Assembly (NCBI GenBank): GCA_046563655.1
Contig: CM102289.1
Location: 5,518,001-5,582,000, forward strand
Length of the DNA: 64,000 nucleotides
Direction of reading: 5' to 3'
Origin: Yuukianura sp. NJ FZ-2021
Lineage: Eukaryota
Both the position numbers and the translations under genes were made by a program. Of this stretch, positions 18,237 through 64,000 are shown piece after piece; the stretch's first letter is position 1; each line of letters starts with the position of its first letter. Under the pieces are notes generated by a model that did no database searches, was not told the DNA's origin, and saw nothing but the letters and a program-made list of their open reading frames with translations.

Positions 18237-18300
18237 TGAAACAGCCTCTACTGCAGTGGGTCGAAATTATTTTCCAGTTCTAATTTTTTTTCGACCTTAT

Positions 18301-18314
18301 TGACTCAATTTATA
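18301..18314 (-). promoter_or_regulatory. TATAAA followed by TGAGTCA, ~65-80 bp upstream of the GR start codon; conserved in GR copies 2, 3 (20825-20838) and 4 (23184-23197)
   Basis: The minus strand reads TATAAA(T/A)TGAGTCA at the same position upstream of three paralogs whose surrounding sequence has diverged. Confidence 0.5.
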
Positions 18315-30536: not shown

Positions 30537-30550
30537 TTTATTTTTTTATT
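30537..30550 (-). terminator. Two AATAAA poly(A) signals 60-70 nt downstream of the NRPS stop codon
   Basis: TTTATT on the + strand at 30537-30542 and 30545-30550. Pipe has its own + strand AATAAA at 30371-30376. The region is very AT-rich, so chance matches are possible. Confidence 0.45.
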
Positions 30551-30608: not shown

Positions 30609-33600
30609 TTATTCGTTAGATAAATCCATCGCCTTAGCCACAATTGAGCACACACGTAAAAGCGGTTCTTTTGATTTAATCCAGCTCACGTGATCTGGAA
30701 TTCCGTACAAACGAATGCATTTCTCAGGAACAAATAGTTCCAAATTGTTAAACTTTCTTTCTCGCGCAAAGTGTTGCGACACTTCTTCATCCTCAAGCCC
30801 CGCCTCCCCTTTCAACAACACAACCTTCGTATCTTTCAAAATTTCCTCGGAAAGTGGTTTCGGATAATACTCGGCTACAATTTCTTCTCCCTCTCTCACT
30901 GGAATTCCAATCTCCCGCAACGTATCTCCCAAAGCAAAAAATGAATCAACGATTACCACACTCGACACTTTGTCTCCACCCACCAAAAGTTGACGCGCAA
31001 TTTCAAATGCTATCATTCCCCCTGAACTCCATCCGAACAAGTCGTACGGGCCTTCCGGTTGAACTCGTTTCATGTGCACAATGTGCAATTTCGCTGCAAA
31101 TTCTAGTGTAAGTCCCTTGATATTTTGGGGATTGAATTTGGTCAAATGGGAGTAATAATTGTTAAACAAAACCAAATCACGTGACCCACCCAATTGTGGA
31201 AGTAGCGTTCCCAAATAGTTTTCAGCCCCACCGTTTCCTGGCGGGAACAAAAATGCTATTGGTTTTTGAATTTCATTTTTTCCCGGGCAAAACACATAAG
31301 GCACAAAATCTGGAAAATCACTCATTGTGCTGGAAGGTTTTGCTTGAATTTGTGCTAATTTCAAAATGACAGTCTCCAGCGAATGTACCAATTCAGCTAA
31401 TAGCCCATCTTCCGCGCCAAGTAATTTGATTTGAATTGCATCTGTATTGTCCAATACCAAAATTTCAAAACCGCTGTTCAAATCTGTCTGATTCTTCCCG
31501 CCAAATTCTACAACACTGTTTGTAAACCGCACGACGACATTCGGTCGACGGACATTTGCAAAGCTGAAACCAATTCCATCATCCGGTACATAACGCAAAC
31601 TTTCTTTTGTAAATACCAAAGCATCCTCAACTGAATCGTGACATGACGATAGCAGAACCGGGTAACTCACTTCAAAATTTCCCGCAGTATTTTCAAATCT
31701 CTTCGACCGTTTGCCTTCGCTTACCAAAACTACGTTCTGAGTGCATCCAAATTTTTTAGTTAAAACGCACGACATCGCTGTAAGAAAAATGTCTCTCATT
31801 TGAACGCCATTTAAAAACGACACGCCCTTCCTCAAAGCAGTACTCAAAGATGACGATAGTACAATACTTTCAACGCCGTTGGACTGCACATGGGCAAATG
31901 TTGGTTCTGAGCAATTTTGCATAATTTTCGCCCAATAGGAGCCGTTGCGTTGTGCAGCAGCTTCTCTTAGCAAAATCCATGTTCGATAATCTTCTTTTGG
32001 AGTAGTTGAACCACGACCTTGGTCAAGGAAATGGAAGAATTCTTTCAATAAAATATTTGCGGTAACTTCATCTGCAAGAAATGAAGCCAGGGTAAATCGA
32101 AAAGTGGATTCATTTTGTCCCAAACTGCAAGTCAATGTCAATGACCTCTTCGGTTCGATGGAATTACTCTCTGGCAATGGATGCGGCAATACCACAAGTG
32201 GCACTCCGCGCATGCTCTCATCGTAAACTAAATCTGAACCTTCCAGATAAAAACCAAGCACGTCAAAAGTCTGTTCTAGATAATGAACCGCGGCTTCTAC
32301 ACTCCTGAGGTCAATCGGAATCGGTCTGGTGCTGGTGAGGTGAATGACGTTTCTCTTCGAGGTCAACTCCAGAGGAGCCGAAACACGAGTAAAGGCAGCA
32401 ATTGATGCTGGACTCACATCCAATCCCGCTTGTTCTTTCAGGACAAACGCACAGAGGCGACTGATCGTTTTATGTTCAAATACATCCTTCACGGAAATAA
32501 TTATGCCCGTTCGCTCTTTAATTCTGCTGACTAAATTGATTGTCTTGATACTGTTCCCGCCCAATTCAAAAAAGTTTGTGTTTAGCCCAATACTGTCCAC
32601 TGGCAAATCCAAAACTTGAGCCCAAATCTCAACTAGCCCTAATTCAAACTCATTCTTCGGTCTGGAAGTATCGAGGTCACTGACCTCAAATTTTGGTTCT
32701 GGAAGAGCCTTCCTGTCCACCTTTCCATTGGGCCTTAACGGAATCTTCTCTAATTTGATCAGGCACGCTGGAACCATGAAATCTGGCAATTGAGCACTGA
32801 GCATGCGTAGTATCTCTTTAGCTGAAAATCCTGACCCTGCGACGCAGTAACCTACAAGCGTGTCTCCCTTTACGTCTACAACACAATCCGACACTGAAGG
32901 ATGTTTGGCCAATGCCGTTTCTACCTCAGACAATTCTACCCGGAAACCACGAATGTTTGCTTGCAAATCAGCGCGTCCCAAAAATTCCAACTGCCCCGCC
33001 AAAGTCCACCGTGCCAAATCGCCTGTCCTATAAAGACGTTCTCTCCGACCACTTGAAAATAGGACTTCAATAAAGGCTTTCTTCGTTCCCGCTTCGTTGT
33101 TCAAGTACCCCCTAGCCAAACCTACTCCACCAATGAACAGTTCCCCAACGGCCAGAGGTGGAAGAATAGCCAAGTTTCTGTCCATGACGTAACAGGATAC
33201 ACTGGGAATCGGAGATCCAATTTCAGATACGCTGTCAGCATCCACCCATTTTCCGGTGGCTGCAACTGAAATTTCAGTGGGACCGTAAGAGTTGTACAGT
33301 TTGACTCGAGAGAGCCAATAGCGAGCTGCTTCTACATTACAAGCTTCCCCACCGAAACTGATTCCTTGGAGCGCCGGGTAATTCAATTTTGGTAATGTTG
33401 GAATTACTGCTGGAGGGAGATAAACAAATTGAATTTTGTTTTGGTCAATGTAAGTTCCGAGGGCATTCGGATTGAGTCGGGTATTTTCGGAAAGAAGATG
33501 AGCTACACCTCCTTTACTCAGCGGACCAAATGCTTCGAACAGAAATGAGTCAAAGGCGTATGAGCAAAATACAGAGCTGACCACAGGGGGGTCATTGACC

Positions 33601-36600
33601 TTCGTAGCTAAGAATGAATCGGCATAAGCAGAAACGGAGTTGACAATTCCGCAATGTTGCAATAAAACGCCTTTAGGTACGCCAGTCGTTCCTGAAGTGT
33701 AGATACAGTAAGCTAAGTCAGTATCTGTCATGTCAGGAGGCGTCCAGTGTTGGTTGGGAAGTTGACCTATGACATCTTCCAAGCAAATCAGTTGACATCC
33801 TTGCAGAACTGAACTGGACTCTTGTCTTTTGTTTGTCACGACAACTTTAGTCTTTGTGTCCTTGATGATGTATGTGATTCGCTCAACTGGAAACGTAGGA
33901 TCGACAGGAACAAACGCTGCGCCAGCCTTCATTATACCCAGCATTCCTACAAACACTTTTTCGTCTCGATCTGCCACCAAAACAACCAAATCTCCTTTCA
34001 AAATTCCACTAGAAGTCAATCTCTGGGCAAGAACGTTTGCACGCATGTCCAATTCCCTGTAACTCAAAACCTCATTTTCATACACAACTGCCGCTGCATC
34101 GGGACACTTCTGAACAGAATGTTCAACAAGCCCATGCAGTGTTGTTGGTGCAGAGGGCATGCGTGGACGCGATGGAGTCATACCCCACTCCTCTGTGATT
34201 TTTCTGTAAACCGGAGTAGTTACCAATTCCAAACTACGCATTTCCTTGGAGCCATTTTCGGCCATTTGTTCCAAAATTTTGACAAAAGTTGAAGCCATGT
34301 TGGTCATGGCCACTTCAGTGTAAGAAATAGAATCGTAAAGAAAACGGAGTTCAATGACTTCCTGCCTCTCCCATGCAAAAACGACTAAAGGATATTCCTG
34401 TTTTTCAATTCCCTTGTCACCTAGCGGAATAAAATTGAACTTTCCGTCACTATTTTGACCTAATTGCCGAGTAGGGAAATTTTCAAAAACAAAGATCGAG
34501 TCAAATGGCGGTCCAGTTTTGTTGGAAACAGCAGACAAATGAACATTTGACCTAGCATTGATTTCAGCCACTTCTTTCTGTAGCGTTCGAATAGCGTCCA
34601 TGAGCGTCCCACTCTCATCACGACAATGTTCAACAATGGCAGGTAAAGTGTTGATGTAAAGGCCGACTGATTTGTCAATTCCAGGAATCGACAGACTTCT
34701 GCCGGAAACAACCGTACCTACTACAGTGACATCCGAAGTACCAAAAACATTTAAAATTTTGTGCCAAGCGTAAAGTAAAATGGAGCTGAGTGTAACTTCA
34801 GCTTTTCTGGACATTTTTCGGAGCTTGTCTGACAGTTCAGCTTTTAGTGTCAGAGGAAGTTCAACAGAATCATACAAAGTGGAACCTACTTTTCGTTGAA
34901 GTTGGTTAAGATTAGACGTGTTTAGACCTACAAGGTCGTTGACCTCACCAATTCGACCAATCTGGTTTTTCCAGTAGGTCAAGTGCTCCTGTGCAGATTC
35001 TTGCAAGAACTTTTGTGTCCTGAGGTACCCAAAATCGAGTTCCACTTCCGGAACGGATCCTTCGACTAAACTATTGTAAAATTTTGTTACAGTTGATAAA
35101 AGAATGGGTAGTGACCATCCGTCCATGATGACGTGGTGGTAGCTAAACAGAGCAGTGTAAGAATCCTGCGCAGTTTGGATTAAATGAACTCTAAACAATT
35201 GACCTTCGTCTAATTTGAACAATCTTTTCTTGTCACCTTCGCTGATTAGTCTAATTTCCTGTTCGTGCATGTCAGAGGTCAAATTTGAAATGTCAATGAA
35301 CGCAAAGTCAAGATCGGGTGAAGAATCGATGACCTGCAGAATTGTTTCTTCTTCCCAGGCAAAACGCAAGCGCAGTGCCGGAAATGCCTTCATGGCTACA
35401 ACCCACGCTTGTTTGAAATGTGTTGGATCCAGTTCTCGCTCGTACTTCCAACCAATTTGAAAAGAGTAACCGTCAGTAGCCTCAGAACCATTCAGAAGAA
35501 AGTTGTAAATGAAACCAGTTTGAAGACTGTTGGCAACAAAAATTGCATCGACTGAATGTTGACTACGTAGACGCTCCAAGTATGAAGTAGAGCAGTACTG
35601 CGTAGGAATTTCGTAAGATTGGAGGTCAAAGGCTGATGGCTGGTCTGGAGGAGGTGGCGGAAGGTCAATTTGGTCTGGTTCTTCTAGATGCTCTGCTAAA
35701 GCCTTGATTGTTTTAAAATCAAAAATATCTTTGGGTGTAATTGAGACATTCAAAATTTGACGGCACAATTCTGCTAACTGAATACTCACAATACTATCTC
35801 CACCTAATTGAAAGAAACTGTCGGTTATACCAAATTCTGATTGGTCCAGATTTAAAACTTTACTCCAAATTTCATGCAAGTCTTCTTCGAGATCCGTTCG
35901 AGGCAAAACTATTTCAGACTCAGTTTGAAATTGCGGTTCTGGAAGTGCTTTCAGATCTACTTTTCCGGTGACAGCCAATGGGAATGCAGAAAGATGGACA
36001 AGGGCAGATGGAACCATGTAGTGCGGCAATTTAGCACTCAAATACTCAAGAATCTCAGAATGTGCAAGTGGAAGTACAGAAGTGTAGTAAACTACGATCC
36101 GTTTTGAACCACTAATTTCTCTCACTTGCGCAATACAAGCAGAAATCTGCGGATAGGAAGCCAAACTAGACTCAATTTCACCCAATTCAATTCGAAAACC
36201 ACGAACTTTGACCTGAGTATCAACACGACCAACAAACTCCAAGTTCCCATCCAACGTCCATCGAACAAGATCACCAGTACGATACAAATTCATTGGATCT
36301 TCCCCTGCAAAAGAGTGAGTGATGAAAGCCTTTTGCATTTCGTCTTCACGATTCAAATAACCCCGCCCAACACCTTTCCCGCCAACCAACAATTCACCAA
36401 TGGCCAAAGGAGGCAGCAGAACCAAATCCTCATTCACAACAAAACAAGTGACATTGTGAAGTGGTTTGCCAATGTCAGACACACGTTCATCTTCAACCCA
36501 CTTTCCGGTGGCTGCAATACTTGTTTCGGTGGGGCCATAAGAATTGTACAAACGGACGCGAGTAGTCCAGTATTTGGCTACACCCACAGGAATTCCATCA

Positions 36601-57600: not shown

Positions 57601-60600
57601 GAGCCCAAAGCCCCCTGAACTGCTGGTTCAAACAGTCTATCTCCATCGTACAACAGCTTGACCTTTAGCCCAAGGTCAAGTTCATAGGCAATTAGAGCCA
57701 ATGGATAGTCGAATTGACCAAAAACGTGATCCAGAAGCAACTCCCACTTCAACTCACTCTCTACCTCTTTCTGTGGAAAATTCTCGTAAGCAAACAAAGT
57801 ATCAAACAACCTTCCCCCATCAGGAGTAAGTTGAGCCAATTGAACACAACTTCTGGAATTCATTTCAACCAAATCCAACTGAATCTGTGTAATTACCTCA
57901 GCCAAAATTCTACTTCCTTTCTGCTCATGCCCAACTACTAAAGGCAAAGTGTTGATGTACAAACCCACTGACGACTCCATTCCCGCCACTGGAATGTTCC
58001 TTCCACTCACAACAGTTCCTGTCACGGTAGTTGAAGCCAAACTGTAGAGATGGAGTACTTGATGCCAAGCCCATTGCAGGAAAGCAGTCATTGTCATTCC
58101 ATGTTTCTGTCCAAAGCGTTTCAAATTTTCGAAAATTTTGAAATCAATTGTTACGCTAATCTCCTTCGGATTCAAAACTTCCCGCATTTCGGCAATTTTC
58201 TTCTGCGGTTGTGAACTTTTTGGAAACAGAAACCCACTCAACTCCATTCTTTCACTGATGGAAGCTACAATTTGGCGCCAGTAGGTCAGATGATCTTCCC
58301 TATGAGAATGCAGATACTGCTGCGCAGAAAAGTAAGCTAGGTCTACGCACATGTCATGTGACACTCCAGAATAAATTTTGTGAACTTGATTAATCAAAAC
58401 TGCCATGCTCCAACCATCTAAAATCGAATGATGAGCACTGAACAAGCAATACATTCCTTCGAGTGTCGAAATAAAGTAAATTCTAAACAGTGGTGCTTTG
58501 TCTAATTCAAATCCTTCTGCTCTGTCTTTCTTTTCAATTTCTGAAATTGCATCTGAGTTTTCCAAATTTGAAATTTGGCGCCAATCAAGAATGCCCACTT
58601 TTGAAATTACTTGGGTCACATCCGAACTCCAGTCAAATCGAAGTCTAAGAGTGGGGTAAAGGTCAATGACCTTTGACCAGGCTTTCTTTAGTCTTTCTTC
58701 GTCTACATGCGAAGTATATTTGATCAAAAGTTGTAACAAGTAAGACTGATCAGTTTCACTGGCTCCGAGATGATGAAAAATGAAACCTTGTTGTAAACTG
58801 TTCGTTGGAAGTCGGATTTCAGGTGCTTCCAGGTCAACTCCGAGGTCAAGAAGGTCATTGACCTCGGTTTCTGTTGACTCAAACGCTAAAGCATCACTTA
58901 GAGCCTCAATCGTCTTGTATTCAAAAATATCTTTCACTTTAAGTGTAATTCCATACCGTTGTCTCAGAAGAGCCGAAATCCGAATGCTACTGATACTGTC
59001 ACCTCCAAGCTGAAAAAAATTGTCTGAAATTCCAAAATCTGTTTCTGAAATTCCTAAAACCTCGGCCCAAATTTTCAAAAATTTGACCTCTATATCATTT
59101 CGCGGGTCAATCCTTATACCTTCACCGACAAAATCTGGTTGCGGAAGAGCTTTGCGATCAATTTTGCCGCCAACCGTGAGTGGCCAAGTTGTCATGCGCA
59201 CAAGTTTCGTGGGAACCATGTACGCAGGTAGCATTTTTTCAAGGTGTTTCGTAACTTTGGCGCCATCTACCTCGTCCAATGGACTTAAATAGTAACCAAC
59301 TAAAATTTTAGTCGTGACCTCGCCCATGACCCGCTCCCTAGCCTCCACCACGGCCTCTTCAATTGCGTAGTATGAAACCATTGCATGCTCAATTTCACCT
59401 AACTCTATTCGGTAGCCCCTAATCTTCACTTGGGTGTCAGATCTTCCGACATATTCCAAATTTCCATCCAGTTGACGTCGAACTATGTCACCAGTCCTGT
59501 ACAGCCTGTCGCCATCGTGAAACGGACTGGGAATGAATTTCTGTGCAGTTATTTCTGGTTTGTTCAAATAACCTCTGGCAACTCCCAGCCCACCGACACA
59601 CAGTTCACCCAGAGCCAGAAACGGGCATTGCCTGCCATATTGGTCCAAAACGTATGCAGACACGCCCTCTAGCGGTCGACCAATCACACGCACGTCCTTG
59701 GCTTTTCGAATTCTGGCGGCTGTATCAACACAACTCAATTCCGTTGCTCCATGAAAATTCCAAAAATCAACTCTGTCTACCCAAAGAGCAGCGACTGCTT
59801 CTGGACAACTTTCTCCCGAAAAAACAATTGCTTGGAGTGAGGGGTAGTGAATTGGGGGAAGTGCTGCTAGAAATGCTGGCGGGAAGTATGCGTAAGTGAT
59901 TTGATTTTGAAGCATGTAGTCACTCACGAGCTGAGCATCATGACGCTGAATTTCACTCAACAAGTGAACTGATCCACCGTTAAAAAGAGTTCCAAAGATT
60001 TCCAAAACTGATGCATCAAACATGTAAGAAGTGAAAGCTAGTTTTCTAATGGGAATTCCCGGAACAAAAATGTCAGAATACGACAAAAGCGTGTTAACCA
60101 CGCCCCTATGTTCAACTAACACGCCTTTCGGCTTTCCGGTTGTTCCGGAAGTGTAGATGCAGTATGCAAGTGAAGTATTACTTTGAACCAAATTCAAATC
60201 AGAATCATTTTGGCGCCTCAGCTTTTCACAAATTTCCTCCACAGTTAGTAGTTCTTGTGGTGCTTTTTGGCTTAAGAGTTTTTCAAGTCTAGACACATGA
60301 CTCTGATTGGTTATAATCAGTGTCGTAGCAGTATCGGATAAAATGTAGTCCAGTCTTTCGTTAGGTGAATTTGTGTCAATCGGAACATAGGCTCCACCGG
60401 CCTTTAGAACTCCAATCATGCACAAGATCATAAACTCATCTCGCTCCAGAAATAGACCAATCAGTGGATTTTCTTGGCCTGGAACAGCTGATTGGACAAT
60501 CCGAGCAATCTGATTGGTCACTTTGTTGAGCATAGAGTACGTATAAGATTTGGAACCAAAGACAAGAGCCTCTGACTCTGGATTTTGTTTAGCTTGTCTC

Positions 60601-63600
60601 TCAATGAAATCATGAATGTTTTCAGTAGGAGTAGAAAATTTGGCAGGAAAATTTGAAAAATCGGCATTATTTTCTGCCAGGATCAAATCAGATGACAGAA
60701 CAGTCGGCGTCTGCGCCAAGGCTTCCACAACTCGTTGAAAAACACCAAGAACGTTGTTGATTGGTCCTTCCTCAAACAGCAAAGAATCATAGCTGAATTT
60801 GACACGAAGTGACGATGAAAGTTCCATAACGGACAGCAAAAGTGGATAGTTGACCTTCTCTACCACATCGATCAGGCGCATGCGCAGTTCCTCGTTTTTC
60901 TCAAACCCAAGCATGTCTGGGTAATTTTGGTAAACAAAAATCGTATCGAAAATTCTCCCGCCAGAAAAGAAATTTGAAATGTCTGCAAGTCGAGCTGTAG
61001 AATGAGCCTCAGCTTCAACAACTTTTTCCTGCACTTTTCTTACAGAATCAACCAATGGGAGAGGATTAGCATGCTCAACAATAATTGGCAAAGTATTGAT
61101 ATAAAGACCAACTGATTCGTCGATTCCACCAATCGGAAGAGACCTACCAGACACCACTACACCTACCACGGTTGTCGTTGTTGTACCAAAAATTTGTAAC
61201 ACTTTATGTAAAGCATATTGCAACATGGCACTCATAGTCACGCCATGTTCCTTTCCCGCCATTTGAAGTTGCTCTAAAAGTTTCCCGGTAAATTCAAATT
61301 CAACTTCCGCAAATTCCTCAACTTTGTTCACCTCATTCAAAGAAATTGCTTTTGACCGATTTGTAAAAAATCCTGGAAGTTCATTTCGCTCTTCAACTGT
61401 ACTAAACTCTGCCTTCCAGAATTCAAGATCTCCAAGTTGCCTCTCCTGAGTTAACTTCTGGGAATAAAAGTAAGTCGAATCTTGACCCAAGGTCAACTGC
61501 TGCCTGCCTACCAGTTGCGAATAAACTTTGTGCAAATTCGTCAACAGTACAGGAATACTCCAACCATCTAAGATGGCATGGTGAGAAGTAAAAACTGCAC
61601 GAAATCTATCCTCAGCCAATTCAAACATCGTAACGCGAAAGAGCGGGCTTTTATTCAATTCAAATCCGGCAGCACGATCAGCTACTTGGAATTTTTTGAA
61701 ATCTTTTTCCATTTCTGCGGAGGTCAAATGTCGCCAATCCAACTGACACCAGTCAAGGTCCGCCCGACTGTCAATGATCTGCACCAGTTCTTCCCAGCCA
61801 AGCCGCAGGCGCAGAGTGGGATACTTCTCGACACAAAGTTCCCAGGCTCTGCGCATGTGCTTGAGGTCAATTGCAACTCCGTATTCCCAAATGTACTGCA
61901 CCAAGTATGCGTCATCTCCTTGTTCTTGCCTCATCCAATGAGAAATGAATCCCTGCTGAAGACTATTGGCGCTAAAAACGGCTTCTACTTCCCTCTTTTC
62001 CTGAATCCTATCCAAATACTCTCCTGTAACCACGTAACCTACATCACTCGGGGTCAAATAAGTTCTGTCTGTTGACCTCAAAAGGTCAATGACCTCTTCA
62101 AGTGCCTTTTTCATGTAAATTTCAAACTCTACGCTACTTTTCACTCTAAATCCCATCCGATCTCCAAAAACTCCACCAACTACAGAAAGTACCGGATCAG
62201 TTGATTCATTTGCAGGATGAATAGTTAATCCTGGAGAATCTTCTAAGATTGACCAATCGTCGTTCGACTCTTTGCTCCTCCCACTCATTACACCCAAGTA
62301 GTTGAACAATATTGGCGGGAGAGGAACAGACTTGTCGTAGCCAATCAAATGACCGTATCCGAAGCCATGCGATGGTATGGCCCTCAGCGATTCTTTTGTA
62401 ATTTTCAAAAGTTGAGCCAAGTTTTGTGTTCCAGCGATCTCCAATTTCACCGGAAACTTGGTTGTAAACCATCCAACAGTTCTGGAGTGGTCAACCGCCC
62501 CTATGTCTTCTCTACCATGCCCTTCAAGTGTCACAAAAAATTCGGTGGAAGGAAACGCCCGTGACAATGCCAGTCCAAGAGCAGTTAGCAGAACATCGTT
62601 CATTTCCGTATGATATACTCTGTGGGCATCAGACAACAAAAATGTCGTTGCAGCCTCGTCTAACGTAAAAGTAGCTTCGATTGCCGGTTTAGTGCCAAAT
62701 TCAATTTTAGAGTTCATTGACCCCTGGGTCAACTGCTTCCAGTATGTCAGTTCTTCCGGATGGTCATTGGCATAACTCGAGCATGCGTCGACCCATTGTC
62801 TGTAACTTGCTGTTTTTGGACCTAGACTCTGACCATGGTAAGCCGATTGCAGATCTTCCAGAATAATTCTCCAGCTAACTGCGTCTACAACCAAATGATG
62901 AGCAGCGAGGAACAATCTGGCTCTTCCAGAATCATATCCATGAATGTAGCCTACAGTAAAGACACGCCCTTTTTCAAGGTCAAAAGAATCCTGCCAAGAT
63001 GTTAAGATTTTGCCCAACTCTGTGTCATTCTTCACTTTTTTGATATCAAGTACACGCAGCATGACCAATCTCGCCTCATTGTACGTCTGACTCTGTTGAC
63101 CTTGGAAGCTGGACCCCAGTATATCATGATGAGCCAAAACAGCGTGCAGTGCAGTAACTAATTTTTGTTTTTCCAGCGCTGGAACGTCAACAAGAAAAGC
63201 CTGATTCCAGTGCCCGGGAATTTCGAATTCTTTGGACCAAAACCAAGATTGAATTGGCAGTAGCGGAAAAGTGCCTTTGAGAATTCCAGTTTCACCAGAG
63301 AATTTGATTGGTTCAAAAGAATTAACATGGCAGAAGACATTGTCCGTTAGAGCCTGAATCGTTCTAAAGTCAAAAATATTTTTCACAGTTACGGAGAGCT
63401 GAAGTTGTTGGCGCATGCGTCCTGCTGCTTGGATACAAAGAATGCTGTCTCCACCCAAATAGAAGAAACTGTCTGTGATACCAACCGATTCCACTGGAAT
63501 TTTGAGCAACCCTGACCAAATTTCAGCAATGTCCAGCTCTGTTTGATTTCTCGGAGCCACTCGGACTCTTCCTTTCGTCACCAACTGAGATTCGGGATTC

Positions 63601-64000
63601 GGCAATTGTCGCCGATCCACTTTTCCGCCAGGAGTAAGTGGGACTTTGTCAATTTGGACAAACAGGGTAGGAATCGCATATGACGGTAGATGTCTTCCCA
63701 GTTCGATTCTCACTTCCTCTTCGTTTTTTACTTTTCCAACGTAGTAACCAATCAGAATCGTTCTTTCCTCTCCGTCATTGTTTTTACGCCCTTTGACCTC
63801 TACAACTGCTGCGTCAATTCCTGGAACGAGCTTCATGAAATGTTCTACCTCGCCTAACTCAATTCGAAATCCGTTGACCTTGACTTGAAAGTCTTTTCTG
63901 CCTACAAATTCCAGTTGACCTGTTACGCAGTCGCGGAAAACAAGGTCACCACTCTTGAATAATCTACCATTCCTGCCTACTTTTTTGTCCTCTTCAGTCT
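30609..64000 (-). CDS. Giant intronless multimodular nonribosomal peptide synthetase, ACV-synthetase-related, 5'-partial: (A1)-T-E-C-A2-T-C-A3-T-E-C-A4-T-E-C-A5-T-C-A6-T-E-C-A7-T-C-A8-T-C-A9-T-E*-TE
   Basis: The frame stays open past the listed ATG at 63836 to the window edge (…FKSGDLVFR…GRKDFQVKVNGFRIELGEVE, A-domain motifs). Approximate motif positions: T cores GG(D/N)S at 63450, 59000, 55815, 51280, 46730, 43520, 39050, 35800, 32555. A3 motifs YTSG(T/S)TGxPKG at 60140, 56950, 52425, 47905, 44650, 40180, 36930, 33685. C motifs HHxxxDGWS at 61570, 58425, 53880, 49370, 46090, 41595, 38385, 35130. E motifs HHLxxD (with downstream EGHGRE and TVGWFT) at 62890, 55215, 50715, 42940. TE GWSSGG at 31025. 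Confidence 0.97.
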   Translation of the reverse strand, partial: TEEDKKVGRNGRLFKSGDLVFRDCVTGQLEFVGRKDFQVKVNGFRIELGEVEHFMKLVPGIDAAVVEVKGRKNNDGEERTILIGYYVGKVKNEEEVRIELGRHLPSYAIPTLFVQIDKVPLTPGGKVDRRQLPNPESQLVTKGRVRVAPRNQTELDIAEIWSGLLKIPVESVGITDSFFYLGGDSILCIQAAGRMRQQLQLSVTVKNIFDFRTIQALTDNVFCHVNSFEPIKFSGETGILKGTFPLLPIQSWFWSKEFEIPGHWNQAFLVDVPALEKQKLVTALHAVLAHHDILGSSFQGQQSQTYNEARLVMLRVLDIKKVKNDTELGKILTSWQDSFDLEKGRVFTVGYIHGYDSGRARLFLAAHHLVVDAVSWRIILEDLQSAYHGQSLGPKTASYRQWVDACSSYANDHPEELTYWKQLTQGSMNSKIEFGTKPAIEATFTLDEAATTFLLSDAHRVYHTEMNDVLLTALGLALSRAFPSTEFFVTLEGHGREDIGAVDHSRTVGWFTTKFPVKLEIAGTQNLAQLLKITKESLRAIPSHGFGYGHLIGYDKSVPLPPILFNYLGVMSGRSKESNDDWSILEDSPGLTIHPANESTDPVLSVVGGVFGDRMGFRVKSSVEFEIYMKKALEEVIDLLRSTDRTYLTPSDVGYVVTGEYLDRIQEKREVEAVFSANSLQQGFISHWMRQEQGDDAYLVQYIWEYGVAIDLKHMRRAWELCVEKYPTLRLRLGWEELVQIIDSRADLDWCQLDWRHLTSAEMEKDFKKFQVADRAAGFELNKSPLFRVTMFELAEDRFRAVFTSHHAILDGWSIPVLLTNLHKVYSQLVGRQQLTLGQDSTYFYSQKLTQERQLGDLEFWKAEFSTVEERNELPGFFTNRSKAISLNEVNKVEEFAEVEFEFTGKLLEQLQMAGKEHGVTMSAMLQYALHKVLQIFGTTTTTVVGVVVSGRSLPIGGIDESVGLYINTLPIIVEHANPLPLVDSVRKVQEKVVEAEAHSTARLADISNFFSGGRIFDTIFVYQNYPDMLGFEKNEELRMRLIDVVEKVNYPLLLSVMELSSSLRVKFSYDSLLFEEGPINNVLGVFQRVVEALAQTPTVLSSDLILAENNADFSNFPAKFSTPTENIHDFIERQAKQNPESEALVFGSKSYTYSMLNKVTNQIARIVQSAVPGQENPLIGLFLERDEFMILCMIGVLKAGGAYVPIDTNSPNERLDYILSDTATTLIITNQSHVSRLEKLLSQKAPQELLTVEEICEKLRRQNDSDLNLVQSNTSLAYCIYTSGTTGKPKGVLVEHRGVVNTLLSYSDIFVPGIPIRKLAFTSYMFDASVLEIFGTLFNGGSVHLLSEIQRHDAQLVSDYMLQNQITYAYFPPAFLAALPPIHYPSLQAIVFSGESCPEAVAALWVDRVDFWNFHGATELSCVDTAARIRKAKDVRVIGRPLEGVSAYVLDQYGRQCPFLALGELCVGGLGVARGYLNKPEITAQKFIPSPFHDGDRLYRTGDIVRRQLDGNLEYVGRSDTQVKIRGYRIELGEIEHAMVSYYAIEEAVVEARERVMGEVTTKILVGYYLSPLDEVDGAKVTKHLEKMLPAYMVPTKLVRMTTWPLTVGGKIDRKALPQPDFVGEGIRIDPRNDIEVKFLKIWAEVLGISETDFGISDNFFQLGGDSISSIRISALLRQRYGITLKVKDIFEYKTIEALSDALAFESTETEVNDLLDLGVDLEAPEIRLPTNSLQQGFIFHHLGASETDQSYLLQLLIKYTSHVDEERLKKAWSKVIDLYPTLRLRFDWSSDVTQVISKVGILDWRQISNLENSDAISEIEKKDRAEGFELDKAPLFRIYFISTLEGMYCLFSAHHSILDGWSMAVLINQVHKIYSGVSHDMCVDLAYFSAQQYLHSHREDHLTYWRQIVASISERMELSGFLFPKSSQPQKKIAEMREVLNPKEISVTIDFKIFENLKRFGQKHGMTMTAFLQWAWHQVLHLYSLASTTVTGTVVSGRNIPVAGMESSVGLYINTLPLVVGHEQKGSRILAEVITQIQLDLVEMNSRSCVQLAQLTPDGGRLFDTLFAYENFPQKEVESELKWELLLDHVFGQFDYPLALIAYELDLGLKVKLLYDGDRLFEPAVQGALGSLEVLLAQIPTFWNQPSSSVQFLSESCSRQILNDWSRTEGPPPPMESVFDRIQQVVDTKPNETALIFGGKEMSYGQLGRKSELLADRLRKVGAGQFVALFLERSFEMVVGMLGTWKFGAAYVPIDPASGSGRIGYILRDTGARVLVTHERHVQNLTSICQNESISIQILSVEEGISETVVTVGTPREIDDLRTMPKEADNFRDTADKLAYVIYTSGTTGEPKGVMVKHSGVAAVVDSIMTPCFGSEKPNCPFLTSYVFDASIIEIVTPLAGAGLVHMLTETERLDPTFLSEYIDLHQINFAYFPPALLATLPRKNYSSLKAIAISGEPCGAELTRYWSQKLRFYNMFGSTESSVVNTANQITDDFANVIGRPLPNEAFFLLDEFRRPVPVGALGVLYIGGVGVAGGYLNKPVETAKNFVQSPFGGKGEKLYRTGDVMRWIGEGNVEYIGRRDLQVNIRGFRIELAEVEEVICRFQGISEAASIVVERILRDTTSGVLIGYYVSEGGIDETELQEHCLSCLPAYMVPSIFVRLESLPLTLGGKVDRKGLPRPTFEIQVEEEVIPARNSAEQGLVKIWKEVLGVSDLGINSSFFQLGGDSILSIQIVGRAKKELGLKLTVRDIFEQKCIKRLADSGCLKVIDLTKGVKGEQGLLTGRFQLLPIQRWFFGSQHTWPHHWNQAFVVHCKGALNVERLASSIALLECHHDVLRMTFDSKNLQQEYFPQISERLGFGRLKVIDLANLEYKEGSSKFEENLQRILTSWQSGFDYGCGPMWNIGLIKGYKDGTSRLHFALHHLIVDAVSWRILVDDLETLYQGKSLGEKGTSYRQWVTAIEKYGKQLPLGEQKYWKDLVEEHEKVRIEMPLKKVMSKVNFSLPIEQSQTLLRTGHSIYNTEVNDLLLSGVASALKIIFPGSTNQYVTLEGHGREEIVEGLDVSKTVGWFTSMYPVCLAVGSNPGETIRKVKDALRAVPNKGIGFGPLMGYSRDTLPPITFNHLGHFGQSSEDREWKMCGDKAGVTMHREDVPADLVAILSYAAEGALHFTVSTCLEMGADEVGNLIASELTSVASHLESANRSRLSLSDVSWVMSWNELEKLQENREVEAVYKANSLQEGFVYHHLHQGHEDDSYINQFLWEYHCQLDLGHLRSAWTKVVQAFPSMRLRFSWGSDEGMFQIIDKEAVIDWRILDWSGEEPNIWREKLDSLRKKDRKDEFSLNSAPLFRVHLIQQRENLFTTLFTAHHAILDGWSGPVLLRALHQTYEELCRGQRLSILDKVDLAYPAAQKHLQEHAHEHEQYWRETLTKVNGRNELVGFFGNSDPGRRTSLFDVRRIQNRVEKELFISGDLYDDMKDACRRHELTLSVLLQYAWHEVLHLYGTEQITVVGTVVSGRELPIDGIDSSVGLFINTLPLVVDHGSNAGQGQMKVIDKIRAIQTSLIEMNAKANVRLGRLQKQGERLFDTLFVFENYPDMNVTEASEKLKVKFIGTEEKLDYALSMLAAEREREKKIRLLLGYAGEIFETDSINRILATFEQILSNTLKILEKPLNELKFLNETNYEKIIEIWNETENRAIGKETLVSEFLRVVAKFPERPAIVFESETLTYAELNFEASKVAQALLSYNVEADDLIGLFFERSHSCVVALLGVLKSGAAFLPISVDQGMDRVSYIVQDAKPKVILTSIAMVQKLNLSDLELPPILILENLKNFENSQLLPTPSQNDLAYCIYTSGTTGVPKGVLVEHESGRNGALAYGFLYDTEEHLRTTALSPYEFDVFALELFGPVLRGHTVHVVSDEVRKDPTLLVKYLQQNRIQFGNISPAMLGSFPREKGLLPHMRGIICGGEALSQFVSDFWCSEVDVYNVYGPTEATMSATCKRVCAGDFNLIGRPHPNYKCYVLDQFMRPVPPLAVGELFIGGIGVARGYLNQPKLTESRFVPNPFGAGSMYRSGDLVRWTEDGNLEFVGRVDTQVKLRGFRIELQEIEQRLVGFPGVDEAVVDVKVRRSEENNEGVKFLVGYYVSEKILQEQEILNFLKIRLPEYMIPSCLVRIPAIPLVGIGKVDRSKLPVPEFSDEVDAEGKPQNELEVALVQIWSKILNLAPQSISTTKTFFNLGGDSIGSIQVSGKVQNELGLPLTVKDIFEFKTIRAIATHLAGEQKKTKIETLAPKVIYSDDELFSLLPIQSWFFDLNFKFPAHWNQAFVLRIPPTDLGVLVERIWEIEKVHPALRMRFDLKASQQKVKTVGGLKSLKILNVQNVKDEDELKQIATSWQSNFDLEQGPLYSLGYVHGFPDGSARLFFAFHHLIIDTFSARVIIQDLNTLFQGKAIEPEGTSYRQWISESKNYSKKNNEQDYWSKFLNDSEILEKSGSNRVVPTSSKMTLSQSISNAILRSANETYGTETFEILLSGLSRALTSVTSKTETWITLEGHGRENIGGGLDVSRTVGWFTTMFPFKLENEPENIGETIQKTKDSVRSVPNKGIGYGLTYGYKTPPLPAIHFNYLGQFSAERSTTSDSDSDHVRFAGIELAGVATHPENPIPGEVSISVSVVNGQVSINVRSVSEEVDSNRLTKAFEDELKGIVEHCLGQGRSYLSSTDVGGVVSLSDLKVIQERGEVEAIFKANSLQAGFVFHALRGGDDSYVVQGIWTYRAAINLESYKKAWACAQRKFPSLRLSFNWRSEIVQVVSKNGPPLDFRFLNLTNLSDDDRRTKLASIAENDRAEPYDLANGPLFRIYLVKTGESEFWCLFSTHHSILDGWSNSILLNYVHDTYALLELGGHPNVDPQLTFFDAQKYIQEVANDDAKYWEDRLGLISERSELVGLVSDNISGVSAIAKEKVVQTPTEFTFPITQQLSFELNRVCRQSDVTINSVLQYAWHKTLQVFGTAEVTVVGTVVSGRNIPVQGVENCVGLFINTLPLVIDHDSLKDFTILEAISNVQNCIAELNSRSASQLAQLHSKAGSGERLFDSIFVYESFPVQKSKNSKLSIEFERGVEKFDYPLVFVAGEIDGVVAGKLVYSADLFSAPVMQNFTSTFMEILSQVAQNPTLSVSNLNLVDGANFDRLQAFSIEKSIPFVAPFTIHEVVESVTAQNPDLEAVVFESTRWSYAELNARANQLASFLVRMRGGVKVKPSPLIGLYMSRNENMLVAMLAVLKSGSGYVPIATDYPTDRLQYVLDDTAVPLILTNSEHLDRLAEIDRPQITTIAVDSHEFQTKVSQEPIKNLNLPIGRHDLCYCIYTSGTTGVPKGVLVEHGGVVNTLRSYSSIFANAQAHTIRETAFTSYMFDASVLEIFGTWFVGGSVHLLSETTRHDARLVSEYMLQQEITHMYLPPAFLATLPPIPYPSLKVIVFSGEGCPQSVADVWAPKVRFYNYHGTTETSCVDTEHLLVADDAAVIGRPMTNVSIHVLSPQLKKVPILALGELCIGGEGICRGYLNKPKVTAEKFVSNPFQTEQQASEGKHSKLYRTGDLVRWRLDGKLEYVGRVDLQVKIRGYRIELGEIESHLRRFPGIEQCTVAVKVREGETATDVATKYLVAYYTTLENEILQKDMEDHLRNYVPAYMIPSRFLRLEALPLTIGGKVDRKALPAPGFFGKTEIDLPRNEVEGEVRELWASVLRISVDAFGISDNFFELGGDSVSSIQIAGRMREVLGFDVSVKDIFEYQTIERLMDSVWANREVKVHGEVNDINDIVLNISAETIERIRKKGEFEAILLANNLQQGFIHHALAQMQENIDDSYIVHEIWKYHQEVNLDYFVQAWLDLVRRHPALRLRFDWEDQLLQIVDKESSFDFRYFDLREGQRSTDLTPDEIIAADRRELFDLSAGKLFRIYLMRESDIEYTGMLSFHHAILDGWSLPVLITEVHVAYSRLVEGDIPRDPADLSYITAQKYLANHMESNLGYWREQVGMISEGRQEISGLISTNLQQRPPAPVLKSTTREIRFNLDPETFLKLKELGRGKGVTLNAILQFVWHKTLHVFSRSKVTVTGTVASGRNIPLAGIETAIGLFINTLPLVVDHNQLSGNLLEAVQYLQAKLTELNSRTNVQLAKLQPPGERLFENIFVFENYPRNASYKQKPALYPFFKKVTERLDYPLVVTAWETRGRFEMIINHSEAVYSAEGVDQMAHVFGEITNQVAKTPLTKPSSLNFLANSYLEKVLEFGRGEKKDFCAPGTLHGILEEASEKWPEKVGLVVEGHELTFKQIDERANQLGNYLVKFGVKSESLIGLFLERTEDLLIGMIGVLKGGFAYVPIDLNLPAERIKFILQDSGVEVVLTNDKHRKHSAFDSENVKVISIDSEEIEVKLSLENKETLGKGTSNSLAYCIYTSGTTGVPKGVLVHHAGAVNTIYSYAHDIFENRDNDIRSTVFCSYAFDAFLMEVWSPWTRGGCIHLLSETTRKDTHLLSEYFRKESITNFYLTPALLSNLPQIDIPSLRTISFGGDGIPVGVAKYWTTRVRLYNSYGPTETSIAATGKWVEDERVSDIGKPLHNVTCFVVNEDLALLPPLAIGELLVGGKGVGRGYLNREDEMQKAFITHSFAGEDPMNLYRTGDLVRWTLDGNLEFVGRVDTQVKVRGFRIELGEIESSLASYPQISACIAQVREIGGSKRIVVYYTSAVPLPHSEILEYLSAKLPHYMVPSALAHLDAFPLAVTGKVDRKALPEPQFSTDEDRVAPKTKLEVEVHKIWSSVLGIPVEQFGVTDSFFQLGGDSISNIQVVGRIRSQLGLTVNVKDVFEWKTVRRICEGLSRNSSSKVVPKLSEQGILSGEFEILPIQKWFFNLNLKQPSFWNHSFLIDVPALNIVRLKSSVTELFQFHDSLRLSFSKFPFQTYESCIPNIKIKILDVKTLGLNITADESNDTLSQIFRAWQSDFDLATGLLTSFGYLHGFSDGKCRLFCAFHHLLGDTVSWRIIMEDLSSIYAQKQLGQKGTSYRQWVEVIKNYGIIHSSQKEFWNSFLGQIPPCIPLVTANWSHVTVTLSKDLTDSLVRKCNGVYHTEVNDLMLSALAMTLQKLENRNRNFVLLEGHGREEIDERVDVGRTVGWFTSMFPVPLEAFASTDKTIVSVKETLRSIPDKGIGFGALFGYNDPQLPLPSTSFNYLGQYVGKSNQTSADSDPASEWKLAKFLGHLTFPEDGNSVGDLSIVASVMNGFLSFVIGSRRLPVELVGSTLEKCLVDIADHCDSVNRTFLTPSDVDNVVTLEILNEIQSRGEVEGVFLANSLQEGFIYRTLNPIEGEEDAYIVQQVWRYETDVDHQKFKAAWVFAAQKFPSLRLRFSWEDSLVQIIDKTVDTDFRLVDHSHLSLEKQASALHKLQNEDRKELFNLKESGLFRIYFIRENQNLIHCIFSSHHTILDGWSLPIVLGAVHAHYNAAREGIKLEVVPDASYTSAQKYLQQHRVDHLDWWREEVSQVTQVNDLLGLKPHSGQTGQSGRADLQIQLDKDCLVALNQLARQHDLTLSSILQFAWHQILFVFGSCSTTVTGTVVSGREMPVAGIESSVGLFINTLPLVVDQTKSIKQSIVDAIKAIHQKTAEISQRSSINLAKIQPQGIKLFDSLVIYENYPKPASGNKVVDLRAQFESVHESIDYPIVLMGWEDEGLKVKVNYSRSIYTDEAILSLQETFVHILNQIAFDSAKTVKEISFVQNFEICDLPKSVEPTTISGCFELTVQKHPDDLALVFEQKEFTYSELNGATNQLARYLQLAGNLKSDENPLVGLYLERNETMVVGILGILKGGGAYLPIDTSYPTGRLQYVLEDSKLSLILTDSTHVQKLKDIVSTWESPPTLLLVDSQEVLHGVKSMSRDNLNIRCERDPLAYCLYTSGSTGKPKGVLLGQAGVVNSIRAFAQQYQLNVPIRATVTSAIVFDLSVVEIFGPLFCGGTIHFLSDPVRKDPELLGNYLQKNLITYLYIAPSLLQTLPKMDFPNLKVISYCGESCRQDVAAYWTSKVQLINFYGPTETSIILTSKELTQKAEVWVIGKALPGMRCFVLDDYLRPLPAFAPGGLYASGVGVGRGYLNKPEQTRAAFLDNALSGLRLYSTGDLARWNLAGELEFYGRRDTQVKVNGFRIELSEIEVVGSKFPGLTGVVVDARPLGGDLGKLTLIFYYVAGEVIDPEVLKGHLRQDLPEYMVPLVFVKIDAIPTTVSAKIDRKALPNPDFESTATAEPETELHVQMVSIWSSVLRISTAKIGIDTDFFSLGGDSIVSIRIVGRVRQQLNIVVTVKDIMEYKTIRRICENIDSTSAVAISNFNSNLDPYNRENNFGGIVSDEILRKIESAGEIDGIFLANSLQRGFIYHALNQQGVAEQGDGDDSYMEQMIWRYDMEVDAHVLKTAWHVAAKKCPALRLRFSWDDNLIQIISKNESVDFRFHDFSQLENPSSRFVQLQQQDRRELFSLEKGGLFRIQLVRLGPGLFRCLFNYHHAILDGWSIVPLLTIVHESYDAILKGQNVQGQQPDLTYVHAQKFLQSKFEADKDFWEGELERISERNELLGLVPSNLAQRVTQISQVRRVMDSKVQSLFVEGNLAAGLNQLSRREGLTMNAILQFTWHKILKTFGTSSVTVCGTVVNGRNLPEINNMETAVGLFVNTLLMIVDHSEYKTCSLVDGIKKLQNHFTEMSSKTNVSLSSLQKEGERLFDSLFTFMNYPTNVSETTGIKLRPTLEGVVDKFDYPLVVLVHQRGNTLQIDLHYSNDLFGVEAIENLGATFMKILEQIVTEPLRNCSRLEMLKDEKFEIMRAGWETEWKELGAPETLHEILEEAATKYPDRTALVTSEGSLTFREIDERGNQLGNYLAKFGVKSESLVGLFLERTEDLLIGMIGVLKGGFAYVPIDLNLPAERIKFILQDSGVEVVLTNDKHRKHSAFDSENVKVISIDSEETQVKISLENKERLGRGTSNSLAYCIYTSGTTGVPKGVLVHHAGAVNTIYSYAHDIFGNRDSDIRSTVFCSYAFDAFLMEVWSPWTRGGCIHLLSETTRKDTHLLSEYFRKESITNFYLTPALLSNLPQIDIPSLRTISFGGDGIPVGVAKYWTTRVRLYNSYGPTETSIAATGKWVEDERVSDIGKPLHNVTCFVVNEDLVLLPPLAIGELLVGGKGVGRGYLNREDEMQKAFITHSFAGEDPMNLYRTGDLVRWTLDGNLEFVGRVDTQVKVRGFRIELGEIESSLASYPQISACIAQVREISGSKRIVVYYTSVLPLAHSEILEYLSAKLPHYMVPSALVHLSAFPLAVTGKVDLKALPEPQFQTESEIVLPRTDLEEDLHEIWSKVLNLDQSEFGITDSFFQLGGDSIVSIQLAELCRQILNVSITPKDIFDFKTIKALAEHLEEPDQIDLPPPPPDQPSAFDLQSYEIPTQYCSTSYLERLRSQHSVDAIFVANSLQTGFIYNFLLNGSEATDGYSFQIGWKYERELDPTHFKQAWVVAMKAFPALRLRFAWEEETILQVIDSSPDLDFAFIDISNLTSDMHEQEIRLISEGDKKRLFKLDEGQLFRVHLIQTAQDSYTALFSYHHVIMDGWSLPILLSTVTKFYNSLVEGSVPEVELDFGYLRTQKFLQESAQEHLTYWKNQIGRIGEVNDLVGLNTSNLNQLQRKVGSTLYDSVELPLTLKAELSDKLRKMSRKAEVTLSSILLYAWHKILNVFGTSDVTVVGTVVSGRSLSIPGIDKSVGLYINTLPAIVEHCRDESGTLMDAIRTLQKEVAEINARSNVHLSAVSNKTGPPFDSIFVFENFPTRQLGQNSDGKFNFIPLGDKGIEKQEYPLVVFAWERQEVIELRFLYDSISYTEVAMTNMASTFVKILEQMAENGSKEMRSLELVTTPVYRKITEEWGMTPSRPRMPSAPTTLHGLVEHSVQKCPDAAAVVYENEVLSYRELDMRANVLAQRLTSSGILKGDLVVLVADRDEKVFVGMLGIMKAGAAFVPVDPTFPVERITYIIKDTKTKVVVTNKRQESSSVLQGCQLICLEDVIGQLPNQHWTPPDMTDTDLAYCIYTSGTTGVPKGVLLQHCGIVNSVSAYADSFLATKVNDPPVVSSVFCSYAFDSFLFEAFGPLSKGGVAHLLSENTRLNPNALGTYIDQNKIQFVYLPPAVIPTLPKLNYPALQGISFGGEACNVEAARYWLSRVKLYNSYGPTEISVAATGKWVDADSVSEIGSPIPSVSCYVMDRNLAILPPLAVGELFIGGVGLARGYLNNEAGTKKAFIEVLFSSGRRERLYRTGDLARWTLAGQLEFLGRADLQANIRGFRVELSEVETALAKHPSVSDCVVDVKGDTLVGYCVAGSGFSAKEILRMLSAQLPDFMVPACLIKLEKIPLRPNGKVDRKALPEPKFEVSDLDTSRPKNEFELGLVEIWAQVLDLPVDSIGLNTNFFELGGNSIKTINLVSRIKERTGIIISVKDVFEHKTISRLCAFVLKEQAGLDVSPASIAAFTRVSAPLELTSKRNVIHLTSTRPIPIDLRSVEAAVHYLEQTFDVLGFYLEGSDLVYDESMRGVPLVVLPHPLPESNSIEPKRSLTLTCSLGQNESTFRFTLASFLADEVTANILLKEFFHFLDQGRGSTTPKEDYRTWILLREAAAQRNGSYWAKIMQNCSEPTFAHVQSNGVESIVLSSSLSTALRKGVSFLNGVQMRDIFLTAMSCVLTKKFGCTQNVVLVSEGKRSKRFENTAGNFEVSYPVLLSSCHDSVEDALVFTKESLRYVPDDGIGFSFANVRRPNVVVRFTNSVVEFGGKNQTDLNSGFEILVLDNTDAIQIKLLGAEDGLLAELVHSLETVILKLAQIQAKPSSTMSDFPDFVPYVFCPGKNEIQKPIAFLFPPGNGGAENYLGTLLPQLGGSRDLVLFNNYYSHLTKFNPQNIKGLTLEFAAKLHIVHMKRVQPEGPYDLFGWSSGGMIAFEIARQLLVGGDKVSSVVIVDSFFALGDTLREIGIPVREGEEIVAEYYPKPLSEEILKDTKVVLLKGEAGLEDEEVSQHFARERKFNNLELFVPEKCIRLYGIPDHVSWIKSKEPLLRVCSIVAKAMDLSNE
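35930..45052. repeat. Near-identical ~1.4-kb direct repeat (about 35930-37330 and 43652-45052, offset 7722 bp) covering A domains 8 and 6
   Basis: Long runs of identical DNA. The shadow ORFs at 36126/43848, 36578/44300 and 36967/44689 all repeat at an offset of 7722. Confidence 0.92.

Follow-up and report, generated by a model that had tools for sequence, protein, structure and literature searches.

A bacterial-type nonribosomal peptide synthetase gene of at least nine modules, probably resident in an arthropod genome

Introduction

Animals were long thought to lack modular nonribosomal peptide synthetase (NRPS) chemistry, and the exceptions known to us are the nemamide genes, the ACV synthetase (ACVS) of springtails, and the clusters of rotifers. 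ACVS comprises three modules in the order A-T-C-A-T-C-A-T-E-TE (A, adenylation; T, thiolation; C, condensation; E, epimerisation; TE, thioesterase), is about 3,700 aa long, and is clustered with isopenicillin N synthase (IPNS), a 2-oxoglutarate (2OG)-Fe(II) oxygenase. Here, we describe an NRPS gene encoding at least nine modules in a 64,000-nucleotide stretch of the arthropod Yuukianura sp. NJ FZ-2021 (GenBank assembly GCA_046563655.1, contig CM102289.1, positions 5,518,001 to 5,582,000 of the forward strand). This whole stretch is called the window, and all coordinates below refer to it. The gene encodes a bacterial-type, type-I modular NRPS that would have been acquired horizontally, and that is probably resident in the arthropod genome and kept intact there.

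In the accessible part of a 2023 survey of 1,059 animal genomes (PMC10531068), ACVS is reported in springtails, together with a 'second NRPS' in Folsomia candida, a non-ACVS NRPS in Holacanthella duospinosa, and an NRPS clade of Tetranychus urticae and H. duospinosa. The same part gives antiSMASH NRPS regions of 44–63 kb on scaffolds of F. candida, H. duospinosa, and T. urticae, for which contamination was judged unlikely. Three NRPS clusters in F. candida are reported in the accessible part of PMC5490193, and that of PMC11258130 reports rotifer NRPS/polyketide synthase (PKS) genes that are induced by a fungal pathogen. Full-text literature searches, covering journals outside subscription, did not reveal any account of an arthropod NRPS that has in-line epimerases and nine or more modules. 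The claim of a preliminary description of this DNA, that the product would be an undescribed animal nonribosomal peptide, therefore stands in so far as no such NRPS was found, and has to be qualified in that non-ACVS NRPS regions of springtails and a spider mite had been noted in the 2023 survey, albeit not described in the part accessible to us.

Results

A single reading frame of more than 33 kb encodes at least nine NRPS modules

The NRPS open reading frame (ORF) occupies 30609..63998 on the minus strand and comprises 11,129 codons plus the stop codon at 30609-30611. It is intron-free and is open on its 5′ side at the window end. The sole stop in the translated frame is the terminal one. 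From the base composition of the strand, about 693 stops would be expected in 11,129 codons, and the other two frames of the same strand contain 647 and 741, indicating that the frame did not arise by chance. The next-longest of the ORFs in the window, seven of which reach 300 aa, is 437 aa long. The first in-window ATG (63836) is located within the C-terminal part of the A domain of module 1, which indicates that the gene starts upstream of the window.

Pfam, applied to the protein in three pieces, identified 12 Condensation, 10 AMP-binding, and 9 PP-binding stretches and 1 Thioesterase, with some domains split. The C, A, and T stretches all scored far above their cut-offs, and their repeated C-A-T arrangement is that of a type-I modular NRPS. 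A phmmer search seeded with the protein's own domains resolved 8 C, 8 complete A, 9 T, and 1 TE domains, in the order [A]-T-E, C-A-T, C-A-T-E, C-A-T-E, C-A-T, C-A-T-E, C-A-T, C-A-T, C-A-T-E*-TE, where the bracketed A domain is cut by the window end and E* is a decayed epimerase-like domain considered below. The uninterrupted frame of more than 33 kb and the nine or more modules announced in the preliminary description were thus both borne out, the latter as eight full modules and the A-T-E end of a ninth.

All modules lie on the minus strand. The partial module 1 (62004..63998) contains the C-terminal end of its A domain (aa 1–130, with motif A8 present), T (157–221), and E (235–665). Module 2 (58887..61985) consists of C (aa 672–1112), A (1133–1630), and T (1640–1704), an organisation also seen in module 5 (46617..49781; C aa 4740–5186, A 5208–5722, T 5730–5794), module 7 (38937..42011; C aa 7330–7765, A 7782–8282, T 8290–8354), and module 8 (35685..38810; C aa 8397–8849, A 8872–9366, T 9374–9438). 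An E domain follows the T domain in module 3 (54324..58820; C aa 1727–2163, A 2185–2695, T 2704–2766, E 2790–3225), module 4 (49794..54302; C aa 3233–3689, A 3711–4205, T 4213–4277, E 4295–4735), and module 6 (42024..46508; C aa 5831–6276, A 6298–6792, T 6800–6864, E 6885–7325). Module 9 (32445..35549; C aa 9484–9934, A 9959–10447, T 10455–10518), which is 62% identical to a metagenome protein, P0376, precedes E* and the TE domain. The E domains that the preliminary description had assigned to the visible modules 1, 3, 4, and 6 were all recovered by TIGR01720, Pfam, and motif content.

All catalytic motifs are intact except in E*

The catalytic motifs of the C, A, T, E, and TE domains were examined with definitions from the NRPS literature. 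The HHxxxDG motif, which reads HHxxxDGWS, was found in all eight C domains, and the phosphopantetheine serine motif in all nine T domains. Motifs A3, A8, and A10 are kept in each of the eight complete A domains. A5 and A7 were also found in all eight, in variant form for A5 in A2 (NFHGATE, aa 1414, module 2), A3 (NMFGSTE, aa 2477, module 3), and A5 (NYHGTTE, aa 5494, module 5), compared to the usual NxYGPTE, and for A7 in the A domains of modules 4 and 7.

TIGR01720 matched four of the four domains that follow a T domain (E values 1e-12 to 1e-18, under the curated 74.2 bits) and neither of two ordinary C domains. The four E domains all retain PIQxWF, HHxxxD, EGHGRE, and GWFT..P, as is characteristic of epimerisation domains; E3 carries a variant of FNYLG, and the P..G.G[YF] motif was unmatched in E1. 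The N-terminal second-His motif of dual C/E domains was only partially present, in C3 and C4. Outside E*, therefore, every catalytic motif of the protein is intact.

The specificity codes of the eight complete A domains were extracted by means of motif anchors from the literature. The codes of A2 and A5, two domains of 53% identity, are near-identical. All eight codes appear to be unlike those of ACVS.

The gene matches its host flank in composition and is found in a related host

The GC content and third-position GC content of the NRPS gene are 0.428 and 0.389, and those of six host ORFs are 0.44–0.465 and 0.39–0.51. The correlation of relative synonymous codon usage was 0.56 between the NRPS gene and the host and 0.49 between host genes, and the dinucleotide distance was 0.050 between the flank and the NRPS gene and 0.058 between the two halves of the flank. 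These results show that the base composition and codon usage of the NRPS gene match those of the host flank.

Convergent with the NRPS gene are the 3′ exons of an intron-bearing heparan-sulfate 2-O-sulfotransferase gene of the pipe type (28041..30070, plus strand). PDB entries 3f5f and 4ndz (HS2ST1) match two of these exons at successive chain positions, with E values of 2e-8 and 1.8e-4, and Pfam Sulfotransfer_2 matches a third exon with 22.6 bits. The stop codons of the pipe/HS2ST gene (30068-30070) and the NRPS gene (30609-30611) face each other tail to tail across a spacer of 538 bp, with a GC content of 25.8%. On the minus strand, the spacer contains two AATAAA hexamers (30537..30550), which follow the NRPS stop codon at 61 and 69 nt and are matches to the consensus only, in AT-rich DNA.

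Public sequencing data were compared as short Logan contigs from four of the five runs that cover the stretch, derived from two studies, and the counts given here are of the contigs listed. Contigs of run X5, which comes from the other study and from another organism (organism B), align to both the flank and the NRPS gene. A flank piece (27031-27663) of this run differs from the window by 25 substitutions and 19 gaps in 629 nt, and the seven NRPS pieces among those listed differ by 4.6–7.6%, six of them without gaps. The spacer contains one X5 contig (joint 30436>30472), the pipe stop codon is spanned by an X1 contig (29866-30234), and contigs of three runs fall in the bin that holds the spacer. 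Host-like composition is thus accompanied by presence in a related host, organism B, as is characteristic of a resident, horizontally acquired gene.

The contig word depth of runs X1 and X2 is of the same order on the flank and on the NRPS gene; contig depth is not copy number, and these values were not used as evidence. The doubled contig depth at 36.0-37.3 kb is due to the duplicated tract described in the next section. In runs X2, X3, and X5, several contigs join parts of the NRPS gene that lie far apart within 32500-44000. Examples of such joints in the organism B contigs are 32576>43663, 36957>43893, and 37115>43168, and a 24.7-kb X3 contig has many joints. These contigs could represent a paralogous or module-shuffled NRPS elsewhere in the genome, or artefacts of the assembly graph at repeated motifs.

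A recently duplicated or converted tract in A6 and A8 is under purifying selection

A tract of 1,554 nt is shared between A8 (35775..37328) and A6 (43497..45050), both on the minus strand, with a spacing between the copies of 7722. The two copies are 90.7% identical in nucleotides and 91% identical in amino acids, whereas all the other pairs of A domains are 36–53% identical. The copies differ at 145 of 1,554 nt, with 31, 26, and 88 differences at the first, second, and third codon positions, respectively, and a dN/dS of 0.09–0.20. This ratio indicates purifying selection on both copies since their duplication or conversion. The tract is a recent internal duplication, or the result of gene conversion, under purifying selection. 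With the motif anchors used above, A6 and A8 give an identical specificity code, suggesting that residues 6 and 8 of the peptide are probably the same amino acid.

The C domains form one clade among bacterial post-E C domains

A hidden Markov model of the gene's C domains scored bacterial C domains that follow an E domain (post-E) at 188–544 bits, and those that follow a T domain or stand at the start of a protein at 54–251 bits. A maximum-likelihood tree built from 49 C domains groups all eight C domains of the gene with that of P0376 in one clade (ultrafast bootstrap/approximate likelihood-ratio supports 98/96), which is nested in the bacterial post-E C clade (100/99). Placed next to it are C domains, again post-E, from a protein of Chryseobacterium lactis and from another protein (98/97).

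The pairwise identity among the modules is 33–43% for C, 38–41% for E, and 36–53% for A. Together with the single C clade, the low identity of the C pairs suggests that the modules are old descendants of one unit of the C-A-T-E type. C3, C6, C8, and C9 have no E domain upstream and are nevertheless of the post-E, or D-donor, type. The chirality D-L-D-D-L-D-L-L-(L), given in the preliminary description, does follow from the placement of the E domains, whereas the post-E type of all eight C domains makes it less secure, and it should be read as tentative.

The closest relatives are bacterial NRPSs and a metagenome fragment

The best full-length relatives are bacterial NRPSs with 27–36% identity, from Catenovulum, Chryseobacterium, Brevibacillus, Xenorhabdus, and Photorhabdus, and the bacitracin synthetase BacC. 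The best matches of three large searches were likewise bacterial NRPSs, at 27–39% identity, and no microbial protein above 39% was found among them. The 150 best matches of the representative-library search were all giant multi-module proteins, whose A-domain scores sum, so that this search is blind to orthologues at 50–60% identity. No close arthropod protein was present among the matches of two full-length searches and of a search with the terminal E*-TE region.

The E*-TE search yielded one close relative, the metagenome fragment P0376, with 62% identity over 1,713 aa; the next relative was a protein of the rotifer Rotaria socialis, with 26–29% identity. The amino-acid make-up of P0376 was uninformative. 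A scan of metagenome loci returned only relatives of 28–32% identity (L006-L009), and the P0376 contig was not among them. Prokaryote genomes scanned by pattern yielded five loci that share the E-TE terminus (23–29% identity), from Francisella, Psychromonas, Legionellaceae, and metagenome-assembled genomes of Bacteroidetes and Proteobacteria. In the parts of these five loci that were examined, no 2OG oxygenase was seen adjoining.

The terminal E* domain has lost its catalytic motifs

The approximately 400 aa that separate the last T domain from the TE domain, which were overlooked in the preliminary description, form the epimerase-like domain E* (31299..32381, minus strand; about aa 10540-10900). 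Pfam Condensation matches E* with 27.2 bits, below the cut-off of 30.6. E* aligns to the intact E domain of the Rotaria socialis NRPS and is 23–24% identical to the other E domains of the gene. Among Atlas clusters, those of Condensation+Thioesterase proteins are nearest to it, and the top PDB fold match of its predicted model, which is of low confidence, is the E domain of TycB3.

In E*, the active-site HH is replaced and PIQxWF and EGHGRE are lost, which indicates a dead E domain. P0376, which is 62% identical, shows the same motif loss, suggesting that the decay is old and that E* is presumably kept for structure. By the alignment consensus, the E domain at this position is intact in the rotifer protein and in the five bacterial relatives. 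Catalytically dead as it is, E* probably has a structural role only.

The TE release domain (30612..31253, minus strand; aa 10916-11129) contains the serine motif GWSSG (aa 10989-10993) and matches Pfam PF00975 with 61.1 bits. The mean predicted local distance difference test (pLDDT) score of the predicted E*-TE model is 66, and the N-lobe of E* is modelled poorly, so that only the TE part, with pLDDT of 75–94, is trustworthy. The modelled TE resembles the TE folds of NocB and Pks13, with TMt of 0.6–0.7.

Comparison with ACV synthetase

With at least nine modules and at least 11,129 aa, the protein does not have the architecture of ACVS. No ACVS was present in the 60 best of 158 PDB matches, and a plasmid tblastn search for ACVS matched nothing but NRPS/PKS termini, from Salmonella among others, at about 27%. 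The protein lengths covered by the terminal E*-TE search did not include that of ACVS, and the residue sets of the prokaryote pattern scan exclude the ACVS variant of the motif.

In Francisella sp. SYW-9, the locus L005:224-11626 encodes a three-module NRPS of 3,801 aa that ends in T-E-TE, an ACVS-like architecture, and its first A domain has Glu where Asp235 is usual. This locus was not used as a stand-in for ACVS; the two 2OG oxygenase matches of the genome are located on other contigs (C25, C8), the C25 match at a position that exceeds the length of the L005 contig, and neither is adjacent.

Other genes of the flank

Four tandem gustatory receptor genes (7tm_7; 14790..23151, minus strand), each a single ORF of 407–429 aa, were identified with E values of 1.9e-13 to 1.6e-8. 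The Atlas clusters nearest to a gustatory receptor of this group are Arthropoda gustatory receptors. The exact sequences of the four ORFs were searched for in a collection of 15 billion proteins, and none of the four was present.

Exons of a non-canonical poly(A) polymerase of the Gld2 type, with an MTPAP-like central domain and PAP_assoc, lie at 12979..13923 on the plus strand. Just upstream, an open frame of 450 aa (10955-12307) has no Pfam match and may be a disordered N-terminal exon of the Gld2-type gene.

Of the 124 stop-to-stop flank frames that reach 55 aa, 109 were scanned with Pfam, the other 15 being minus-strand frames between 11022 and 14140. In these 109 frames, neither bacterial-type genes nor an IPNS-like 2OG oxygenase were found; the 5′ side of the NRPS gene is outside the window. 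Genes for a phosphopantetheinyl transferase (PPTase) or for tailoring were likewise not seen among the scanned frames in these 30 kb of flank. As regards the neighbours named in the preliminary description, the intron-rich pipe gene about 540 bp from the NRPS stop codon (538 bp by our PDB and Pfam matches), Gld2, and the gustatory receptors were all confirmed, whereas the homeobox gene was not: it had no Pfam match in the 109 frames, and all frames of 1-30600 lack a homeodomain helix-3 motif.

At 25513-25937, contigs of X2, X3, and X5 carry the same 17 letters in place of 423 bp. This difference is an insertion/deletion polymorphism in the host flank, and the 423-bp segment is perhaps a small mobile element present in the haplotype of the window.

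Discussion

The NRPS described here is probably an animal NRPS of foreign origin, like the rotifer and springtail precedents, and is notable for its size and integrity. As far as the accessible parts of PMC11258130 and PMC10531068 describe them, the NRPS/PKS proteins of bdelloid rotifers are horizontally acquired, bacterial-like multimodular synthetases resident in animal chromosomes. The protein P0377 of Rotaria socialis (A-T-E-TE) is 29% identical to the present one over 1,226 columns and has the terminal E-TE and the TE motifs in common with it. However, the rotifer NRPSs belong to another phylum and have low identity, and the rotifer E domain is intact whereas that of the present gene is decayed. 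With the ACVS of springtails, fungi, and bacteria, the gene shares the T-E-TE terminus, similar TE motifs as compared by eye with the part of the published material at hand, and its occurrence as a foreign NRPS in a soil arthropod. ACVS differs in having three modules, compared to at least nine here, and the present gene has four additional E domains with intact motifs and a dead terminal E domain. The flagged NRPS regions of F. candida, H. duospinosa, and T. urticae resemble it, by their description in the 2023 survey, as NRPSs on arthropod scaffolds.

The bacterial NRPSs of the tyrocidine, bacitracin, and gramicidin type and those of Chryseobacterium have the same C-A-T-(E) logic, canonical motifs, and post-E C clade, and the PDB sequence matches of the gene are LgrA, TycA/B, and SrfA-C. 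Unlike these bacterial NRPSs with in-line E domains, to which it is at most 39% identical, the present gene is a single ORF of more than 33 kb in an animal genome, and its C domains belong without exception to the post-E type, including those preceded by a module with no E domain.

We consider it probable that the gene is resident in the arthropod genome and has been kept intact there. We infer that it was transferred from bacteria; it would be expressed in the animal and give a product whose chirality may follow the placement of its E domains. A bacterial-type NRPS would have entered the arthropod germline by horizontal transfer and would then have been domesticated. By standard NRPS logic, each A domain would adenylate one alpha-amino acid and load it on the phosphopantetheine arm of the T domain. 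A PPTase of the host itself would prime the T domains, and the C domains would join the residues in order. The E domains of the visible modules 1, 3, 4, and 6 would invert those residues to the D form, and the terminal TE would free the peptide, at least nine residues long, through hydrolysis or macrocyclisation. As a tentative proposal, the arthropod itself may produce a nonribosomal peptide that has nine or more residues, contains several D-amino acids, and is possibly macrocyclic. The enzyme would be a domesticated megasynthetase encoded by a single exon and exceeding 11,000 residues, in which all the modules would derive from one 'after-epimerase' C-A-T-E unit and A-domain conversion would be ongoing in the germline under purifying selection.

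Several observations weigh against a resident and domesticated gene. The 5′ end, the start codon, and anything upstream of the NRPS gene fall outside the window; the 33-kb gene is intron-free although its neighbours bear introns, as would also fit a gene that arrived recently or was joined chimerically; none of the listed contigs spans the NRPS stop codon at 30609, the linkage of pipe and NRPS being seen on the window's contig alone; P0376, which is the sole close relative, was recovered from a metagenome contig and might stem from the lineage of a microbial donor; and the references of the C-domain tree were nine proteins picked from the gene's own matches, with no fungal and no ACVS domains among them. 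Since multimodular NRPSs are typically microbial, the lack of introns, the stop codon left unspanned by the listed contigs, the 5′ side outside the window, and the metagenomic nearest relative would also fit an assembly chimera or a contaminant, in which the NRPS of a bacterium or fungus living in or on the animal was joined to host DNA by the assembler. Such an origin is very unlikely, because the GC content, codon usage, and dinucleotide signature of the gene are indistinguishable from those of the flank, the spacer has a GC content of 25.8% with AATAAA 61 and 69 nt past the stop codon, the contigs of three runs fall in the spacer bin, organism B, from a second study, has both the flank and the NRPS gene at similar divergence, and no microbial protein exceeds 39% identity among the best matches of the three large searches. 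The missing introns, together with the lack of a PPTase or tailoring gene in the scanned flank frames and the decay already seen in E*, could instead suggest that the gene is resident but silent or dying, that is, a recently inserted foreign gene that is unexpressed or not activated by the animal. This too is unlikely: the frame is stop-free over 11,129 codons with every catalytic motif outside E* intact, the A6/A8 copies have a dN/dS of 0.09–0.20, and six of the seven listed NRPS pieces of organism B are gap-free at 4.6–7.6% divergence, compared to 19 gaps in the noncoding flank piece. In addition, the decay of E* is common to the 62%-identical P0376, and hence old and tolerated, and the composition of the gene is already host-like.

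A different ancestry, in line with the preliminary description, which read the gene as an expanded relative of ACVS, would make the NRPS a descendant of a springtail-type ACVS that grew from three to nine or more modules by duplication in the animal lineage. The T-E*-TE terminus is as in ACVS, and the TE block PPGxGGAExY ... FNN ... GPYxxxGWSxGG resembles, by eye, ACVS sequences in the part of the PMC10531068 supplement available to us. The monophyly of the C domains would fit growth by module duplication, and A6/A8 shows that internal duplication or conversion does occur. However, the same E-TE terminus and motifs are present in the rotifer NRPS and in the five bacterial loci, next to which a 2OG oxygenase was not seen, and no protein named ACVS occurs among the 120 best matches within the length range of 2,035–6,475 aa, which includes that of ACVS. 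The modules are moreover old (33–43%, 38–41%, and 36–53% pairwise identity for C, E, and A, respectively), and the scanned frames within the visible flank contained no gene resembling IPNS. Only the T-E-TE terminus and the TE motifs resemble ACVS, and on these sequence comparisons descent from ACVS appears unlikely.

If a resident, functional NRPS of bacterial type is the correct explanation, modular NRPS chemistry in animals would extend to long peptides with D residues, made by the animal rather than by a symbiont. The enzyme would then be among the largest biosynthetic enzymes encoded by animals, and could underlie a defensive or antimicrobial chemistry not known from arthropods. The gene would offer a concrete target for peptide discovery by liquid chromatography–mass spectrometry, and a case for how a bacterial gene of 33 kb is expressed, phosphopantetheinylated, and kept intact in an animal. 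It also bears on the evolution of NRPS assembly lines, in that post-E C domains occur with or without a preceding E domain, and a dead E domain is conserved before the TE.

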